From Lachnospiraceae bacterium (lineage in GTDB: Bacteria > Bacillota > Clostridia > Lachnospirales > Lachnospiraceae): a stretch of DNA of 64,000 bases. Within the stretch, counting starts at the first letter, position 1. Each line of letters opens with the position of its first letter. The DNA lies in contig JAAWNY010000001.1 of assembly GCA_022799175.1 (NCBI GenBank), positions 4,999 to 68,998 on the forward strand, read 5' to 3'. This document shows positions 1-7,342 of this stretch, piece after piece. Position numbers and translations under genes: made by a program. Under the pieces are notes generated by a model. That model saw only the letters and a list, made by a program, of their open reading frames with translations, was not told the DNA's origin and searched no databases.

Positions 1-1293
1 CATGACGATCAGTCCGCCGGAGCCCATCATAGAGCCGATGGAAATCAGATTGTCATAGTCGATGGGAATATCAAAGTGCTCATAGGGAATACATCCGCCA
101 GAAGGACCGCCTGTCTGCGCCGCCTTGAACTTCTTGCCGTTGGGAATACCGCCACCAATCTCCTCGATTACCTCACGCAGAGTCGTACCCATGGGAATCT
201 CTACCAGGCCGGTATTATGGATTTTGCCACCGAGAGCAAAAACTTTGGTACCTTTAGATTTCTCGGTGCCCATGGAGGCAAACCACTCAGGTCCATTGAG
301 GATGATCTGTGGGATATTGGCATAGGTTTCTACATTATTCAAAATAGTGGGCTTGTCAAACAGACCTTTCTGGGCCGGGAACGGAGGTCTTGGTTTTGGC
401 TCGCCACGATTACCTTCGATGGAGTGCATCAGTGCAGTCTCTTCGCCACAGACGAAGGCACCAGCGCCCAAACGCAGATCAATATCAAAATCAAAACCAG
501 TACCGAAAATATCTTTGCCTAAAAGCTCCATCTCCCTTGCCTGGTTGATGGCTATCTTTAAACGCTCCACGGCGATGGGGTACTCAGCGCGGACATATAT
601 GTAGCCTTGATTTGCTCCGATGGCATAACCAGCGATGGCCATAGCCTCCAAAACGGCATGTGGATCACCCTCGAGTACGGAACGGTCCATAAATGCACCA
701 GGATCCCCTTCGTCAGCATTACAACAGACGTATTTCTGATCGGCATCATTTTGTTTGGCCAGTTTCCACTTGAGTCCGGTGGGGAAACCGCCGCCGCCTC
801 TGCCGCGCAGACCGGAATCCATCAGGCATTGGATGACATCGTCAGGAGTCATCTCGGTCAATACTTTACCAAGAGCAGCATAGCCGCCAGTACCGATATA
901 CTCTTCGATGACTTCCGGGTTGATAACACCACAGTTGCGCAGAGCAACACGGTGTTGCTTTTTGTAGAAGTCGGTGTCTACGAGAGACTTAACGCCAGCC
1001 TGGGTAACGGTCTCCTGATACAGAAGACGGGTTACTACACGGCCCTTCAACAAATGTTCAGATACAATCTCCGGAATATCTTCTACCTTAACCATGGAGT
1101 AGAAGCTGGCATCCGGATAAATAATCATAATTGGTCCTAAGGCACAGAGGCCATGACAACCGGTCTGGACGACGGAAACCTCGTCCTGGAGGCCGGCTTT
1201 CTCAATTTCTGCCTTCAGTGCTTCCATTATCTGCTGGCTGCCGGAGGAAGTACATCCTGTTCCGCCGCAGACCAATACATGTGAACGATACAT
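1..1293 (-). CDS. hydB: NADH-dependent (bifurcating) [FeFe]-hydrogenase beta subunit, NuoF/HydB/HndC-like; 3' end runs off the window
   Basis: Manual translation of the minus strand from ATG at 1293 (RBS aggag) gives MYRSHVLVCGGTGCTSS...GLRGRGGGGFPTGLKW...NADEGDPGAFMDR...GAFVCGEETAL...GGPSGGC, the NuoF FMN/NADH motifs. It is absent from the ORF track because it has no stop in the window. Confidence 0.93.
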   Translation of the reverse strand, partial: MYRSHVLVCGGTGCTSSGSQQIMEALKAEIEKAGLQDEVSVVQTGCHGLCALGPIMIIYPDASFYSMVKVEDIPEIVSEHLLKGRVVTRLLYQETVTQAGVKSLVDTDFYKKQHRVALRNCGVINPEVIEEYIGTGGYAALGKVLTEMTPDDVIQCLMDSGLRGRGGGGFPTGLKWKLAKQNDADQKYVCCNADEGDPGAFMDRSVLEGDPHAVLEAMAIAGYAIGANQGYIYVRAEYPIAVERLKIAINQAREMELLGKDIFGTGFDFDIDLRLGAGAFVCGEETALMHSIEGNRGEPKPRPPFPAQKGLFDKPTILNNVETYANIPQIILNGPEWFASMGTEKSKGTKVFALGGKIHNTGLVEIPMGTTLREVIEEIGGGIPNGKKFKAAQTGGPSGGCIPYEHFDIPIDYDNLISIGSMMGSGGLIVM

Positions 1294-1316: not shown

Positions 1317-1694
1317 CTATTTGATGTCTGCTGAATTCAGGGTGTATTCTTCTACCACATGTCCCCCGATCAGATGGCGCTCCACGATTTCAGCAGCTTT
1401 GTCGGGATTCATCTTAATGTAGGTGATTTTGGCTTTGCCGGGTTCCATCACCTCTACGATGGGCTCATATTGGCAAAGGCCGATGCATCCGGTCTGGGTA
1501 ACAGCTACCTTGCCGGTGAGACCTTTCTCCTGGACTAGTCCAGACAGGGCGTTAAGTACAGGTCTGGCACCGCTGGCGATCCCACAGGTAGCCATACCGA
1601 CCACAACACGGGTCTGATTGCTGTCTTCCGCCCGCAGACCCACCTGGCCCTGCATTTTGTTGCGGATGGCTTTTAACTCTTCAAGGCTTTTCAT
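1317..1694 (-). CDS. Thioredoxin-like [2Fe-2S] ferredoxin subunit, HydD/HndB-like
   Basis: VVVGMATCGIASGA and TGCIGLCQYEP motifs; position within the hydrogenase operon. Confidence 0.88.
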   Translation of the reverse strand: MKSLEELKAIRNKMQGQVGLRAEDSNQTRVVVGMATCGIASGARPVLNALSGLVQEKGLTGKVAVTQTGCIGLCQYEPIVEVMEPGKAKITYIKMNPDKAAEIVERHLIGGHVVEEYTLNSADIK

Positions 1695-1741: not shown

Positions 1742-2299
1742 TTAGTATACGGCGCCGCCGTCAGTTTCCAATTTGTTCTCGGTCAGATAATCCAGAATAT
1801 ACGCAGAAATCTCAGGTGTGTCAAAAGGAACACCTTCCAGAACTTCCTTAAATTCCCTTGTGTCCAGGATAAAAGACCGACCGTCATAGTGATATTGGTA
1901 GAGAAAATCTGTCTCCGGATGATAGACCACCAGGGTATGTATGGTGCTTGTAATATCACCGAGGGGCATCCGGTCAATGTGGGATAGGACAAAAACCGCC
2001 GTCACCGTGGTTCCGACGCCGGGCTCGGATCCGATCGAGAAGGAACCGCCTGCCGCTTCTGCTGCATATTTAAAAAAGGGAACCCCCAGTCCTACCTTGC
2101 GGGTGGTCCGACTGGTGAAAAACGGATCTGTCACCTGCGTCACCTGCTCCGGGGTCATGCCGCAGCCGTTGTCAGCGATGGTAATGGTCAGACGGTCGGC
2201 TGTCGTGTCCGCCGCTACTGTGATTTGCACCAGGGATGCACCTGCACGGGTAGAGTTCTCTGCCACATCTAAGACGTTTAAGGAAATCTCGGTCATCAT
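1742..2299 (-). CDS. Stand-alone HATPase_c (histidine-kinase-like ATP-binding) protein
   Basis: N box (DVAENS), G1 (DNGCGM), F box (DPFFTS) and G2 (GLG) motifs; no HisKA or sensor domain. Confidence 0.85.
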   Translation of the reverse strand: MMTEISLNVLDVAENSTRAGASLVQITVAADTTADRLTITIADNGCGMTPEQVTQVTDPFFTSRTTRKVGLGVPFFKYAAEAAGGSFSIGSEPGVGTTVTAVFVLSHIDRMPLGDITSTIHTLVVYHPETDFLYQYHYDGRSFILDTREFKEVLEGVPFDTPEISAYILDYLTENKLETDGGAVY

Positions 2300-2305
2300 A
2301 GGCGC

Positions 2306-2800
2306 TTATTGGTACTTGGCCAGGATGCCAGGAATGTCGTCCGGCACCAGCCGTCCATAAACCTCATCGTTGATCATCATGACAGGGGCAAGACCACAGG
2401 CGCCTACGCAGCGACAGGAGTCCAAGGAGAACTTGCCGTCGGGAGTACACTGTCCGTTGGTAATCCCAAGAAGCTCCTCCAATTTACTGAAAATAGCTGC
2501 GGAACCCTTTACATAACATGCGGTCCCGAGACATACGGAAATCTGATATTTGCCTTTAGGCTGCAGGGCAAACTGGGTATAAAAGGTTGCTATGCCATAA
2601 ATTTTCTCCAGCGGGATACCCGTCTCGTCGGAGATCATGGTCTGAACTTCGATGGGGAGATAGCCGTAAATCTCCTGCGCCTGCTGCATGATAGGCATCA
2701 AGGCACCCTTGGTGTCCTTCAGCTCGGCGATGACTTTCTTTAAAGCGGCTTCCTGATCCGGGGTCCCGCTGAAAGGAACTCCTTCTTTTTTGCAAGCCAT
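2306..2800 (-). CDS. hydC: [2Fe-2S] subunit NuoE/HydC/HndA of the bifurcating hydrogenase
   Basis: CLGTAC...CVGACGLAP motif and ATFY motif; RBS aggagg upstream. Confidence 0.93.
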   Translation of the reverse strand: MACKKEGVPFSGTPDQEAALKKVIAELKDTKGALMPIMQQAQEIYGYLPIEVQTMISDETGIPLEKIYGIATFYTQFALQPKGKYQISVCLGTACYVKGSAAIFSKLEELLGITNGQCTPDGKFSLDSCRCVGACGLAPVMMINDEVYGRLVPDDIPGILAKYQ

Positions 2801-3132
2801 GTCTCATCCTCCTTCTAGTAATGATACTATCTTTAAAATTAAATGTACCGCAACAGCTTAGAGCTTTTTACTGTTACAATGTACCAACAGTTTACCATGA
2901 AAATGATAAAAAATCTATAGTAAATAAATAGTTATCATACCCGTTAAAAACATATCGATAAAAAATATTGATAATTCATCTTTTCGATGGTATTCTTAAT
3001 ATAGCAAAGTAACGGTTAAAACTGGAAATGATTATAAAAGTTGTATTTTTCTGGCAAAGCAGGCAGAATAAACGGTTAAAAAATAGTTTAGCGCTAGAGA
3101 AATTAAGAAAAAAGAAAACAGGAGGGCAGAAT

Positions 3133-3480
3133 ATGACAGTAAAGGATGTACAGGAGATATTGGGCGCACGGGTTTTGACAGGTGAGGAATTTTTAGACCG
3201 AGAAGTGAGAAGCGCGTGCGGTTCCGATATGATGAGTGATGTGTTGGCATTTTCTAAAGATCATTCGGTGCTTTTGACAGGGTTGTGCAATCCGCAAGTG
3301 ATTCGTACGGCAGAGATGCTGGATATTGTGTGCCTGGTGTTTGTGCGGGGAAAGAAGCCGGATGAGACGATTATTGAAATGGCAAGAGAGCGGGAGATTG
3401 TAGTGTTAGAGACGGGACATCGGATGTTTTCTTCGTGCGGAATGCTATATAAAGCCGGCTTGGGCGGAGGTGCGATTTGA
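3133..3480 (+). CDS. Stand-alone DRTGG-domain protein
   Basis: ATG at 3133 after RBS ggagg; GSDMMSDVL...LLTGL...IRTAEMLDI...FVRGK pattern typical of DRTGG proteins in hydrogenase clusters. Confidence 0.8.
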   Translation: MTVKDVQEILGARVLTGEEFLDREVRSACGSDMMSDVLAFSKDHSVLLTGLCNPQVIRTAEMLDIVCLVFVRGKKPDETIIEMAREREIVVLETGHRMFSSCGMLYKAGLGGGAI

Positions 3481-3902
3481 TGGATGAAGCAATTGTTTTG
3501 AAATATGACATTTCTCCAGACGATTTTACCAGGGCCGGTGAAGCAAGCAGCGATGTGAAGGGAAAGCTAAAGCAGTTGGGGGTCAGCCCGGAGGCGATTC
3601 GTAAAGTGGCGATCGCCATGTATGAGGGTGAGATCAATATGGTTATCCATGCCAATGGCGGAGAGATTACTGTAGAGATAACGCCAGTAGATATCAAGAT
3701 GGTTTTGGCTGATGTAGGACCAGGGATTCCAGATGTGGAACAGGCGATGAAGGCTGGATATTCCACCGCACCGGACGAGGTGAGGAGCCTTGGTTTTGGC
3801 GCGGGTATGGGATTGCCGAACATGAAGAAATACACCGATGATATGGCGATCGAAACGAAACTTGGCGTGGGGACGACAATCACCATGATTGTAAAGATGT
3901 AG
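3480..3902 (+). CDS. Anti-sigma-factor-type Ser/Thr kinase (RsbT/SpoIIAB-like HATPase_c)
   Basis: EGEINMVIHA (N box), DVGPG (G1), GFGAGMGL (G2); the ATG overlaps the upstream TGA, suggesting translational coupling. Confidence 0.85.
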   Translation: MDEAIVLKYDISPDDFTRAGEASSDVKGKLKQLGVSPEAIRKVAIAMYEGEINMVIHANGGEITVEITPVDIKMVLADVGPGIPDVEQAMKAGYSTAPDEVRSLGFGAGMGLPNMKKYTDDMAIETKLGVGTTITMIVKM

Positions 3903-3971
3903 AGAGAACAATCAGATATTAGAATTGCTGTACATAGGCAGCTTTGGAAGAAGGACAGGAGGTAGCGGAAT

Positions 3972-5399
3972 ATGGATAAATTTTACCATTCAGTGCGTTT
4001 GGATTCGGAATTGTGCAAAGGATGTATTAACTGTATCAAACGCTGTCCGACTCAGGCCATCCGGGTCAGGAATGGAAAGGCACAGATTAATGGCAAATTC
4101 TGCATTGACTGTGGAGAGTGCATCCGGGTCTGTCCGCACCATGCCAAACATGCCACTTACGATAAGATGGATGTGATGAAGCAGTATCGTTATACGGTGG
4201 CGTTGCCAGCGCCGGCACTGTACAGTCAGTTCAACAATTTGGATGATGTAAATATTGTGTTGAATGCATTGCTTTTGATGGGATTTAATGATGTGTTTGA
4301 GGTCAGTGCAGCAGCAGAACTGGTATCAGAGGCTACACGAGAGTATCTGAACCATCATGAGGATAATCTGCCGATCATCAGTACCGCATGTCCGTCTGTG
4401 GTGCGTCTGATTCGAGTGCGTTTTCCGAATTTGATCTCTCATTTATTGCCACTGAATCCACCGGTGGAGGTGGCGGCGTCTTTGGCGGCGCAGCGTGCCA
4501 TGCAAAAAACAGGACTGGAACGACAGGAGATAGGGATCTGCTTTATCTCGCCATGTCCGTCAAAGGTCACATATTCCAAATCTCCTTTGGGAACGGAGAA
4601 AAGCCAGGTAGATCATGTGCTTGCCATCAAGGATGTATATCCGCAGCTGATTTCTCATATGAAAGCAGTGGGAGAGGAAGCTTGGGATCTGGCAACTTCC
4701 GGGAAGATCGGTATCAGCTGGGGTCGAAGTGGTGGCGAGGCTAGTGGATTGTTTACAGAGAGCTATCTGGCAGCAGATGGTATTGAAAATGTGATCCGGG
4801 TATTGGAAGATCTGGAAGATCAGAAGTTTACCAATTTGAAATTTGTGGAGTTGAATGCCTGCAACGGCGGCTGCGTAGGGGGAATTTTAAATGTAGAGAA
4901 CCCTTATGTAGCGGAGGTGAAGCTGAAACGACTCCGCAAATATATGCCAGTGGCCAGGAGCCATATGGATATGGAAGACCACGTGGAGGAGATGATTCCC
5001 TGGACGACAGGAGTGCAATATGAGCCAGTATTCAGTCTGGGCGGCAACATAATGGAAAGCTTTGCTCGCTTAAATCAGGTAGAACGGCTTTGTAAGAAGC
5101 TGCCAGGTCTGGACTGTGGTTCTTGTGGAGCGCCTACTTGTAAGGCATTGGCGGAAGATATTGTGCGGGGGCAGGCTAGTGAAAATGACTGTGTCTATTA
5201 TCTGAGGGAGAATTTGCATAAATTGTCAGAAGAGGTTTCCGTATTGGCAGATGATTTGCATGGGGGAGATAAAGGCGGACAGGAGACGTTGCGGATTTTG
5301 AAAGAGTATATTCAGCGGATCTCGGATGAGATGTCGCTTCTGGATAATCGGGATGCCGAAGAGGAAACAGGAAAGCATAATAATAGTGGAGGATTGTGA
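3972..5399 (+). CDS. HydS-like (group D-type) [FeFe]-hydrogenase homologue / Fe-S sensor
   Basis: Two CxxCxxCxxxCP ferredoxin motifs; H-cluster-like motifs TACP, SPCPSK and ELNACNGGCVGG; C-terminal CGSCGAPTC...C Fe-S domain. Confidence 0.82.
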   Translation: MDKFYHSVRLDSELCKGCINCIKRCPTQAIRVRNGKAQINGKFCIDCGECIRVCPHHAKHATYDKMDVMKQYRYTVALPAPALYSQFNNLDDVNIVLNALLLMGFNDVFEVSAAAELVSEATREYLNHHEDNLPIISTACPSVVRLIRVRFPNLISHLLPLNPPVEVAASLAAQRAMQKTGLERQEIGICFISPCPSKVTYSKSPLGTEKSQVDHVLAIKDVYPQLISHMKAVGEEAWDLATSGKIGISWGRSGGEASGLFTESYLAADGIENVIRVLEDLEDQKFTNLKFVELNACNGGCVGGILNVENPYVAEVKLKRLRKYMPVARSHMDMEDHVEEMIPWTTGVQYEPVFSLGGNIMESFARLNQVERLCKKLPGLDCGSCGAPTCKALAEDIVRGQASENDCVYYLRENLHKLSEEVSVLADDLHGGDKGGQETLRILKEYIQRISDEMSLLDNRDAEEETGKHNNSGGL

Positions 5400-5436
5400 G
5401 AAGAGGAAATAAAAAGTAAGAAGAAGGGAGAAGAAC

Positions 5437-5772
5437 ATGACAGTACAGGGACTTCTAGATAGTGGGATGTTTAGTATAGTGAATGTGGGGGAGAATCCGG
5501 AGCGGGAGATCACAGTGCCATTTTGTTGCGATCTTTTAAGCATTGCTATGGGAAGAGCGCCAGCGGGGTGTGCCTGGGTGACGGTGATGGGGAACATGAA
5601 TACATTGGCAGTAGCTACGCTGACGGATGCGGCATGTATTATCATGGCGGAAGGGGCAGTGTTAGATGAGATTGCCATGAAGAAGGCTAGAGATCAAGAA
5701 ATCACGGTGATGGGGACTGAGATGCCGATCTTTGAGGCGGCGTTGAAGGTGTACCAGGCATTACAGGGGTAG
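5437..5772 (+). CDS. Second stand-alone DRTGG-domain protein
   Basis: CDLLSIAM...WVTVMGNMNTLAVA...IIMAEG pattern. Confidence 0.78.
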   Translation: MTVQGLLDSGMFSIVNVGENPEREITVPFCCDLLSIAMGRAPAGCAWVTVMGNMNTLAVATLTDAACIIMAEGAVLDEIAMKKARDQEITVMGTEMPIFEAALKVYQALQG

Positions 5773-5776
5773 AGAG

Positions 5777-6493
5777 ATGATTACGCTTACTTATGACCTG
5801 CATATCCATTCCTGCCTTTCCCCTTGTGGGGATGATGATATGACGCCGGGCAATATTGTGGGTATGGCGGCAATCAAAGGATTGGATGTAATTGCAGTGA
5901 CAGATCATAATTCTTGTCGGAATTGTCCAGCGGTGATGAAGCTAGCAGAACAATTCGGCGTTCTGGCGGTTCCTGGCATGGAGATCAATACCTCAGAGGA
6001 GGTTCATGCCGTATGTCTGTTTCCGGGGCTGGAGCCGGCGCTGGATTTTGATGCCTATGTATATGAACGTTTGATGAAGTTTCCTAATAAAGAAGCTGTA
6101 TTTGGAAAGCAACAAATCTGCAACGAAGAAGATGAAGTGGTGGAAACAGAACCGAATCTGCTGATCAACAGTGTGGATATTTCTTTTGATCAGCTATGGG
6201 ATCTGGTGCGTTCTTTTGATGGAGTGATGTTTCCGGCCCATATTGAAAAGAGTGCCAACAGTTTGATTGCCAATCTGGGATTTGTACCGCCGGATAGCCA
6301 GTTTAAGACGGCGGAATTAAAGGATCTGAAAAGATTGCATGAAACGAAGAAGGGGAATCCTTATCTGGAGGGATGCCGAATTATCAGCAATTCGGATGCG
6401 CATTATCTGGAACATATCCATGAGCCAGAATTGACGATTCCAGTGAGAGAAAGGAGTATTGAAGGAGTGCTGAACGCGTTGCTGGGGAAATAG
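5777..6493 (+). CDS. PHP-domain phosphoesterase
   Basis: DLHIHSCLS, AVTDHN, GMEI, PAHI and NSDAH metal-binding motifs. Confidence 0.88.
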   Translation: MITLTYDLHIHSCLSPCGDDDMTPGNIVGMAAIKGLDVIAVTDHNSCRNCPAVMKLAEQFGVLAVPGMEINTSEEVHAVCLFPGLEPALDFDAYVYERLMKFPNKEAVFGKQQICNEEDEVVETEPNLLINSVDISFDQLWDLVRSFDGVMFPAHIEKSANSLIANLGFVPPDSQFKTAELKDLKRLHETKKGNPYLEGCRIISNSDAHYLEHIHEPELTIPVRERSIEGVLNALLGK

Positions 6494-6526: not shown

Positions 6527-7342
6527 ATGTATACACCAGGAGAAATTGCAGAAAATTATATCCAGATCGGAAAGAAAAAGGCGGTAATGAATACGGACAA
6601 GATGTTTCTATTGGCAGTTATGGCTGGTATTTATATCGCTGTGGCAGGTTGTGGTGCATCCACAGCCGCCGGTACGATTGGTGGGTCTGCCGGAAAGCTG
6701 ATAGGGGCCAGTGTCTTTCCCGCTGGTCTGACTCTGGTGCTGTTAGCTGGCAGTGAATTGTTCACTGGCAATTGCCTACTTATCATTCCTGTGTTGGAGA
6801 GGGAGATTTCTGTGGGCGCGATGCTCCGCAACTGGGGGATCGTGTATCTGGGGAATTTTGTCGGCAGTATTCTTGTGGCGTGGATGGTGGTGAATAGTCA
6901 CCAGCTGAGTCTGTTTGATGGTCAGCTGGCAGTGGCGGCAGTCAACACGGCAATAGCGAAGGTGTCGATGCCATTTGCAGATGCCTTGATCAGGGGGATT
7001 CTCTGCAATCTGCTGGTCTGCCTAGCTGTCTGGGTGAGCTTTGCGGCAAAGGATGTGACTGGCAAGATAATAGGGTTATTTTATCCGATTCTGGTATTTG
7101 TGGTTTGTGGTTTTGAGCACAGTGTGGCAAATATGTTTTACTGCCCGGTAGCGTTGTTTGCCTTAGGACTTCCGGAATATGCAAAGTTGATTACGATTGA
7201 TGTGAGCGGCTTGACCTGGGGCAGCTTTGTTCTGAAAAATCTGGTGCCGGTTACGCTGGGAAATATTTTTGGGGGAGCGGTGCTCGTGGGGGTAGTATAT
7301 TGGCGGATATATCTGCGCAAGGAGCATCCGTCACTCTTCTGA
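6527..7342 (+). CDS. Formate/nitrite transporter (FNT, FocA/FdhC family)
   Basis: FPAGL...GSELFTGN, GILCNLLVCLAVW and GFEHSVANM signature motifs. Confidence 0.92.
   Translation: MYTPGEIAENYIQIGKKKAVMNTDKMFLLAVMAGIYIAVAGCGASTAAGTIGGSAGKLIGASVFPAGLTLVLLAGSELFTGNCLLIIPVLEREISVGAMLRNWGIVYLGNFVGSILVAWMVVNSHQLSLFDGQLAVAAVNTAIAKVSMPFADALIRGILCNLLVCLAVWVSFAAKDVTGKIIGLFYPILVFVVCGFEHSVANMFYCPVALFALGLPEYAKLITIDVSGLTWGSFVLKNLVPVTLGNIFGGAVLVGVVYWRIYLRKEHPSLF

Follow-up and report, generated by a model that had tools for sequence, protein, structure and literature searches.

A conserved gene cassette around a group D putative sensory [FeFe]-hydrogenase in Clostridia and its possible role as a partner-switch-like signalling module

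How a sensory [FeFe]-hydrogenase passes its signal on to the cell is an open question in the papers on TamHydS of Thermoanaerobacter mathranii (2020–2026), and the enzymes of group D carry no PAS domain, so that their signalling route is a blank. The question is raised by a locus in a stretch of 64,000 nucleotides (positions 4,999 to 68,998 of contig JAAWNY010000001.1, assembly GCA_022799175.1; hereafter the window), which belongs to the Lachnospiraceae-like metagenome-assembled genome, about 91% complete, of a gut bacterium. Five packed plus-strand genes at window positions 3133-6493 encode a group D hydrogenase (HydS), two free DRTGG-fold proteins (D1 and D2), a SpoIIAB-like ATPase of the serine-kinase type (K) and a PHP-family phosphoesterase (P). 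An original prediction described them as an undescribed partner-switching circuit. The comparative data discussed here, which are derived from sequences, make it very likely that these genes are part of a six-protein signalling cassette built around HydS, and its proteins are the best candidates for the signalling pathway of the sensor. The data supply likely partners, one residue (Ser35) and candidate protein pairs. The cassette occurs in about one third of the sampled Clostridia, including gut, rumen and biofuel organisms. In these organisms the H2 partial pressure decides between formation of acetate and H2 on the one hand and ethanol, lactate or butyrate on the other.

Composition and conservation of the cassette

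The genes follow one another in the order D1, K, HydS, D2 and P, with intergenic gaps of −1, 69, 37 and 4 nucleotides, and a ribosome-binding site (Shine-Dalgarno) of the GGAGG type lies ahead of all five open reading frames (ORFs). D1 (3133..3480, 115 amino acids) matches the Pfam DRTGG profile with E 1.4e-7. The ATG of K (3480..3902, 140-141 amino acids), a GHKL ATPase of SpoIIAB/RsbW type (HATPase_c_2, E 1.5e-10), overlaps the stop codon of D1 by 1 nucleotide, and an alternative TTG start is present at 3477. HydS (3972..5399, 475 amino acids) is followed by D2 (5437..5772, 111 amino acids) and by P (5777..6493, 238 amino acids; PF02811, E 1.4e-7), a predicted metal-dependent enzyme. The ORF listing and the profile scans thus agree with the tight packing and the divergence from a bifurcating hydrogenase that the original prediction had described.

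The sensor was classified with the motif definition of group D (M2e) given by Land et al. (PMC8163306), and the assignment is one by those features. Its N-terminus has two Fer4 domains, a dicluster matching residues 8-58 in which C15, C18, C21, C25, C44, C47, C50 and C54 are conserved (106 orthologues). The H-domain (Fe_hyd_lg_C, E 1.9e-28) keeps the H-cluster-ligating C140, C195, C297 and C301, and a C-terminal Cx2Cx4Cx16C motif (C382, C385, C390 and C407) is recognized by the PF04060 FeS profile (E 1.3e-13). All 16 cluster cysteines are at least 95% conserved across the 106 orthologues. At the position of the proton-relay cysteine (C299 in CpI) the TSCCP motif is changed to ISTACP, with Ala for Cys, the consensus of the orthologues being ISsaCP, and profile scans gave no match to a PAS domain in HydS. 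Since all tested group D motif features are present, the protein that had been described as a HydS-like Fe-S/H-cluster sensor can, as judged from these motifs, be regarded as a bona fide group D sensory [FeFe]-hydrogenase. The tail encoded by 5260-5399, which comprises about 45 acidic and Gly-rich residues, has no equivalent in the orthologue consensus. Elsewhere in the same genome (G000:C50; L002 1021-2751 minus, L003 1375-2826 minus) a second HydS-like protein is encoded together with a polyferredoxin-type [FeFe]-hydrogenase of 483 amino acids. This second HydS-like protein, which is preceded by a 2Fe-2S protein, has 576 amino acids, with Fer4, H-domain, FeS and a C-terminal region of about 170 amino acids, and possibly belongs to group C.

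The distribution of the cassette was established with an even sample of 301 genomes from the phylum, of which 106 have a group D HydS and 121 a protein of the D1/D2 family. In 17-kb regions around 105 HydS matches, ORFs were called and assigned by phmmer and by hidden Markov models of orthologues, the ortholog sets being composed of first-pass matches and position-based orthologues. At least 86 of the 105 loci contain all five genes in the order D1-K-HydS-D2-P, and most of the exceptions are contig ends. The dominant arrangement is D1>K>HydS>D2>PHP>hydC>H>fdx>hydB>hydA, all co-directional, in which the cassette usually lies directly upstream of hydCBA. That similar clusters accompany hyd operons, as stated in the original prediction, is therefore borne out by this neighbourhood census, and the proximity of M2e genes to kinases and bifurcating hydrogenases was already noted by Carere et al. 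2012. A further 80 loci, the closest relatives of K in named genomes as gathered with the K alignment, retain a complete cassette, with three or four exceptions. The divergent layout of the window is a minority phylum-wide and the commonest one among these 80 relatives (Hungatella, Enterocloster, Lacrimispora, Anaerobium, Ruminococcus, Oscillospiraceae and others).

Deviating arrangements were also encountered. In loci L109, L117 and L124, from three genomes of one family, a second HydS > D2-like pair without its own K and PHP precedes a second hyd operon, and D32 and S35 are kept. In locus L150 (8001-9900) the cassette is decaying: K is missing and only short ORFs remain of HydS and PHP, while D1 and D2 are intact, as are the hydC-H-fdx-hydB-hydA genes downstream.

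The extent of the module has to be widened by one gene. While all five genes of the predicted core are conserved, this core omitted the gene for H (1742..2299, minus strand, 185 amino acids), a stand-alone HATPase_c domain of the histidine-kinase type (CA-like; E 2e-16) with a conserved C-terminal domain. H is closest to the catalytic domains of histidine kinases (KinB, 2e-15), without a DHp or His domain, and its C-terminal region has its own conserved motif, HIDRxPLGD. It adjoins the cassette in most loci, including L148, L149 and L152, which are devoid of hydABC. Because H is also found naturally fused to the phosphoesterase, it is, on this comparative basis, counted as the sixth member of the module though it is encoded within the hyd operon.

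Natural fusions also connect the other proteins. D1 and K form a single ORF in eight loci from at least three families, with more examples in a representative library; D2 is located on the C-terminus of HydS in four loci from two families; and D1 on the N-terminus of HydS in one representative. The PHP~H fusion was detected in four loci, L129 being recognized by Pfam and L121, L123 and L126 by the length of the ORF. One example of each fusion type was confirmed by Pfam. As read from these predicted ORFs, three physically coupled pairs are shown, namely D1 with K, HydS with D2, and PHP with H.

Some genomes possess D proteins and lack HydS. In these, K bears an N-terminal CBS pair, and the genes run D1>CBS-K>D2>PHP>H, whether or not hydABC is present. 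In locus L147 (7995-15392), D1 and a CBS-CBS-kinase directly precede genes for a 2Fe-2S ferredoxin, rnfC, rnfD and rnfG, with rnfB following after two unscanned ORFs, and in L155 a plain D1>K pair is found beside RseC, NfnAB-like genes, fhs and rnfC. Since the CBS pair is fused to K where HydS is missing, the sensor is, by this comparison, exchangeable and the input modular (H2/redox state or adenylates). The HydS-less variants and their Rnf and Nfn neighbours further show that the module is a companion of complexes that convert energy with ferredoxin and NAD(P)H. In the HydS-less cassette of L149, H is followed by a gene (4879-5331, minus) for a putative DNA-binding protein with DUF134 and a zinc ribbon, which might serve as output regulator there.

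The DRTGG proteins and the putative enzymes acting on them

With a score of 31.7 bits, D1 exceeds the cut-off of 25.2 bits for the Pfam DRTGG family (PF07085), and the Pfam scan indicated clan members that include the PucR N-terminal and HprK N-terminal domains. D2 alone gave no Pfam match. It is a paralogue of D1, as indicated by its match to the D1 profile (E 1.2e-10) and by the same predicted fold and order of secondary-structure elements, and in this way both of the free DRTGG domains that had been proposed are recovered. The AlphaFold2 models have confidence scores (pLDDT) of 92.9 for D1 and 97.6 for D2. The Foldseek matches of D1 include the DRTGG protein AF1212 (TM-score 0.84), the regulatory region of a CBS-pyrophosphatase (PDB 3l2b/3l31; TM-score 0.74) and the N-domain of HprK. 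A STAS-like fold was rejected for D1, as no STAS protein was among the best 50 of 784 Foldseek matches, and the cassette contains no STAS gene. In a library of 1.84 billion proteins, the D family comprises 1,411 clusters of 50% identity at E <= 1e-10.

The D-x-x-S motif noticed in both proteins is conserved far beyond chance. Every one of the 77-84 D1 and 97 D2 orthologues of the phylum-wide sample has Asp32 and Ser35, and so do 81/81 D1 and 80/80 D2 sequences of a second, independently gathered set; Thr49 is invariant in D1 and D2 as well. Other positions distinguish the paralogues: R72-G73-K74-x-P76 is nearly invariant (>=90%) and T94 conserved in D1, whereas D2 is without R72 and K74 and has conserved W47, Q51, H53 and N55, the last of which is invariant. 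In the clade of the window, D2 has M51/N53 instead of the phylum consensus Q51/H53 (78-80 of 80 close relatives, L160-L239), a substitution that accompanies the divergent gene layout. In the models, Ser35 lies in the first turn of helix 34-40, right after strand 27-30, a position which we take to resemble that of Ser58 in SpoIIAA. The invariant residues of the D proteins appear to cluster along one edge of the sheet, as far as can be judged from the fold instead of from model coordinates. That Ser35 is a generic feature of DRTGG domains was rejected, since the positions of D32 and S35 are occupied by Ala and Pro in AF1212 and by Asp and Glu in the CBS-pyrophosphatase of the same genome. The DRTGG domain of the latter (G000:C115:27201-27509, L240) reads NPDMME where D1 has GSDMMSD.

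As for the description of K as an RsbT/SpoIIAB-type kinase, the likeness to SpoIIAB agrees with the present data. Its nearest relative in the PDB is SpoIIAB (1tid, E 4.4e-7) and its best NCBIfam match is the anti-sigma F factor family TIGR01925, although its equivalog scores, 58 bits for SpoIIAB and 26 bits for RsbW, fall far short of the respective cut-offs (135 and 145 bits). The N-box (E/N/H), the G1 (DxGxG) and the G2 (GFGAGxGL) motifs are at least 95% conserved, and the catalytic Glu is kept. A SpoIIAB-like protein with all ATP-binding motifs conserved is thus supported by sequence comparison. The sole paralogue of K in its own genome is a separate SpoIIAB-like gene of 140 amino acids.

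For P, the proposed identity as a PHP phosphoesterase is substantiated by a complete trinuclear set of metal ligands, H9, H11, D43, H44, E69, H77, H155, D207 and H209, all invariant in 42-95 orthologues, as is Cys17 in an LSPC motif. Comparison of the P profile with the PDB gave the PHP domain of EndoQ (8.8e-16), TM0559, Rnm (a 5'-3' exoribonuclease), pAp phosphatase, PolC and YcdX.

A possible mechanism and its rivals

The features described above can be combined into a mechanism in which the cassette would follow the logic of stressosomes and partner switching with non-homologous parts, DRTGG domains standing in for STAS domains and PHP for PP2C. A HydS~D2 unit would act in the role of a sensor-STAS protein (RsbR, YtvA), D1 in that of RsbS or RsbV, K in that of RsbT or RsbW, and PHP in that of RsbX, the phosphatase which resets the system. 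The engagement of K with the DRTGG proteins would change with the redox state that HydS adopts in response to H2, a state which is probably sensed through the C-terminal [4Fe-4S] cluster. K would phosphorylate Ser35, at the N-terminus of helix 2, in D1 and/or D2, and PHP, aided or gated by H, would strip the phosphate off again. The output would most likely consist of post-translational control of the electron-bifurcating hydrogenase, or of Rnf or Nfn in the variants.

For this reading as a whole, in which HydS sets a serine-phosphorylation module with post-translational action on HydABC, we consider the chances about even. The phosphorylation of Ser35 by K, which we infer from the invariance of this residue, its position and its specificity to K-linked DRTGG proteins, is itself somewhat more doubtful. 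As to the output, the census of about 185 loci revealed neither a linked sigma factor nor a common regulator, in agreement with the absence of sigma-factor and DNA-binding genes that the original prediction noted for the five-gene cluster. A common linked transcription factor was rejected, as the upstream neighbours are mixed (SPOR-like in 24 loci, Rex in 7, and others). The lack of a linked DNA-binding gene and the co-transcription with hydC-H-fdx-hydB-hydA that is predicted for most loci therefore make a post-translational output the preferred one, which we would hold to be evenly balanced between true and false, and the hydC-bearing bifurcating hydrogenase is the likely regulated enzyme. 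Of the original proposal, in which DRTGG proteins replace STAS factors in partner switching, the invariant, subfamily-specific serine and the gene order and fusions that mirror RsbV-RsbW-target-RsbX stand; the fold is not that of STAS, and the nearest relatives of P are not protein phosphatases.

Several observations weigh against this reading. To our knowledge, all substrates of HATPase_c_2 kinases are STAS domains, and D1 has a DRTGG fold. Among the PDB matches of the P profile no protein phosphatase of the CpsB/YwqE type was found, and by this comparison P is closest to phosphoesterases acting on nucleic acids and nucleotides, not to protein phosphatases. Some loci (L151-L155) have D1-K and no PHP, and the role of H in the module is without explanation. 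In the D1 model, D32, S35, T49, R72 and K74 are situated in loops after predicted strands and could form one pocket, serving as a ligand site or an interface. The fusions, finally, fit a pure adaptor role equally well, and this is the main and serious rival: D1 and D2 may be non-phosphorylated adaptor or dimerization domains, the pairing of which docks K onto HydS, while K has its substrate elsewhere (a HydABC subunit, H or PHP) or is only an ATP-dependent binding switch. Sensor and kinase each carry their own DRTGG partner in the D1~K, HydS~D2 and D1~HydS fusions, both D proteins expose the same invariant surface motif, and PHP is dispensed with in some loci. DRTGG domains are also reported to form the dimer interface in the regulatory region of CBS-pyrophosphatase (3l2b/3l31). 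As kinase-substrate fusions are known in partner-switching proteins, e.g. Rv1364c, the fusions do not discriminate between adaptor and phosphorylation. However, the strict conservation, throughout about 340 sequences, of a Ser that stands beside an Asp where a helix begins exceeds what an interface usually needs, and the Ser is replaced in DRTGG domains that are unlinked to K. An adaptor function is, all considered, rather unlikely, and it is the most probable of the alternatives.

If the loops form a pocket, D1 and D2 may instead sense a small molecule, a nucleotide or phospho-metabolite that is bound there and that PHP would hydrolyze, so that energy charge is integrated with H2. Five kinds of invariant residue (Asp, Ser, Thr, Arg and Lys) in post-strand loops are, judging by the fold, suggestive of a classic ligand site, the clan includes putative ligand-binding domains (PucR and HprK N-terminal), the nearest relatives of P act on nucleotides or nucleic acids, and in the variants HydS gives way to CBS pairs, which sense adenylates. 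This possibility is nevertheless quite improbable, as D2 misses the R72 and K74 of D1, no clear role would be left for K, and we know of no ligand for any DRTGG domain. The kinship of K to anti-sigma F/B factors would also allow it to be a true anti-sigma factor or regulator-binding protein, with transcriptional output through an unlinked sigma factor or regulator. In favour of this can be mentioned the DUF134 gene after H in L149, the Rex gene upstream in 7 loci and the AraC-type neighbour in T. mathranii (PMC8163306). Against it speak the roughly 185 loci without a linked sigma factor or common regulator, scores of K far under the SpoIIAB and RsbW equivalog cut-offs, and the separate SpoIIAB-like gene that is the only K paralogue in the genome, and we regard such an output as very improbable. 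Least probable of all, to an extent that it can hardly be expected, is that the cassette does not signal; HydS would then be a hydrogenase for slow catalysis or for electron input, and the small proteins would serve the assembly or maturation of HydABC. The predicted co-transcription with the structural genes in most genomes would fit, as would the slow turnover of H2 by TamHydS in vitro (PMC8163306). Regulation is indicated by the presence of a phosphoesterase and of an ATPase of the kinase type, and by CBS-kinase variants that lie near Rnf or Nfn with no hydrogenase-like gene; moreover, the HydABC complexes seen by cryo-electron microscopy are not known to need any cassette protein.

If the phosphorylation reading is true, it would represent a new partner-switching chemistry, non-STAS and non-PP2C, and offer a means to steer fermentation and the output of H2. 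One may even envisage that DRTGG forms a new class of serine-phosphorylated switch domains replacing STAS, and that D1-K-D2-PHP-H is a general redox/energy stressosome of anaerobic Bacillota which, with H2 or CBS-adenylate input, gates HydABC, Rnf and Nfn at the protein level, but this broader proposal is speculative and on balance unlikely.

Neighbouring genes and comparison with known systems

On the minus side the gene order is hydC-HATPase-fdx-hydB. The hydC gene (2306..2800, minus; PF01257, E 9e-52) encodes a NuoE-like 2Fe-2S subunit of the bifurcating hydrogenase and is followed, beyond H, by the gene for a small 2Fe-2S thioredoxin-like ferredoxin (1317..1694, minus; identified by profile scans) and by the NuoF-like hydB (1..1293, minus; ORF listing), the 3' end of which, encoding the C-terminus, is cut by the window start. 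A hydA-like frame of 586 amino acids lies beyond the window start (G000:C5:3387-3920). The spacer of 332 bp between hydC and D1 (2801..3132) contains CGGTTAAAA twice, at 3013 and 3073 and thus spaced by 60 bp, and CGTTAAAAA once, at 2942; these sites could be a candidate binding site of a regulator. Control by Rex was rejected, as the spacer is without a Rex operator (TTGTTAANNNNTTAACAA, <=3 mismatches). At the other end, a gene for a FocA-type formate/nitrite transporter (6527-7342) starts 33 nucleotides past the PHP stop codon with no terminator-like site between, and given the divergent arrangement here it may share a transcript with the cassette; in other genomes it is outside the conserved module.

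The closest known counterpart of the sensor is TamHydS of T. mathranii. Both proteins have two N-terminal [4Fe-4S] motifs, the four ligating cysteines and the Cx2Cx4Cx16C motif, both are without PAS domain and have the proton-relay cysteine replaced, and both are encoded beside a trimeric bifurcating hydrogenase (PMC8163306, PMC13104023). TamHydS was studied only as a hydrogenase, in vitro, and its signal transduction and native partners are stated as unknown (PMC8163306; PMC13104023, 2026). HydS of the window differs from it by an extra, non-conserved acidic tail. The claim that the pathway is undescribed is in agreement with this, and no account was found in the literature searched. Full-text searches gave no paper linking DRTGG to hydrogenase, and those on the locus tags of known carriers and on phosphoproteomes of thermophilic Clostridia gave nothing relevant. 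New in the present analysis are the invariance of Asp32 and Ser35, the natural fusions, including those of H, and the CBS-K variants without HydS.

Group C (M2f) HydS proteins, as found in Thermotoga maritima, Ruminococcus albus and in hfsABCD of Thermoanaerobacterium saccharolyticum (PMC5707799), have the same C-terminal four-Cys cluster and also occur beside bifurcating hydrogenases, and genetic studies on hfs gave a regulatory phenotype on ethanol and H2 (PMC5707799). They differ by a fused PAS domain and by pairing with PP2C phosphatases or with Ser/Thr or His kinases; in the cassette, the place after the four-Cys cluster is occupied by the DRTGG protein D2, which is sometimes fused. With the HoxBC-HoxJ-HoxA system of Cupriavidus necator, which is based on a [NiFe] enzyme, the cassette shares the logic of a crippled hydrogenase that controls a kinase as H2 sensor, but the proteins are unrelated and the Hox output is a His-Asp two-component route to a transcription factor. 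The CBS-DRTGG-CBS insert of family II pyrophosphatases (PDB 3l2b/3l31) has the same fold as D1, and the association of CBS with DRTGG recurs in the HydS-less cassettes; the insert is, however, an allosteric part of an enzyme, and Ser35 is not conserved in it (Glu in the CBS-pyrophosphatase of the same genome).

In organization, the cassette resembles the partner-switching and stressosome systems of Bacillota (SpoIIAA/AB/E, RsbR-S-T-X and RsbV-W-SigB). There too, a small HATPase_c_2 kinase gene comes right after, and is translationally coupled to, the gene of an alpha/beta antagonist of about 115 amino acids, an invariant Ser is located at a helix N-terminus, the operon includes a phosphoesterase, and sensor-antagonist and kinase-antagonist fusions occur. 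In the cassette, DRTGG is found instead of STAS and PHP instead of PP2C, a sigma factor is lacking, and H is present as a second GHKL ATPase. Thus, the sensor can be filed within group D HydS, and the cassette is kept apart from the partner-switching systems because of its non-homologous parts, its second ATPase and the lack of a sigma factor, even though it plausibly works like one of them.

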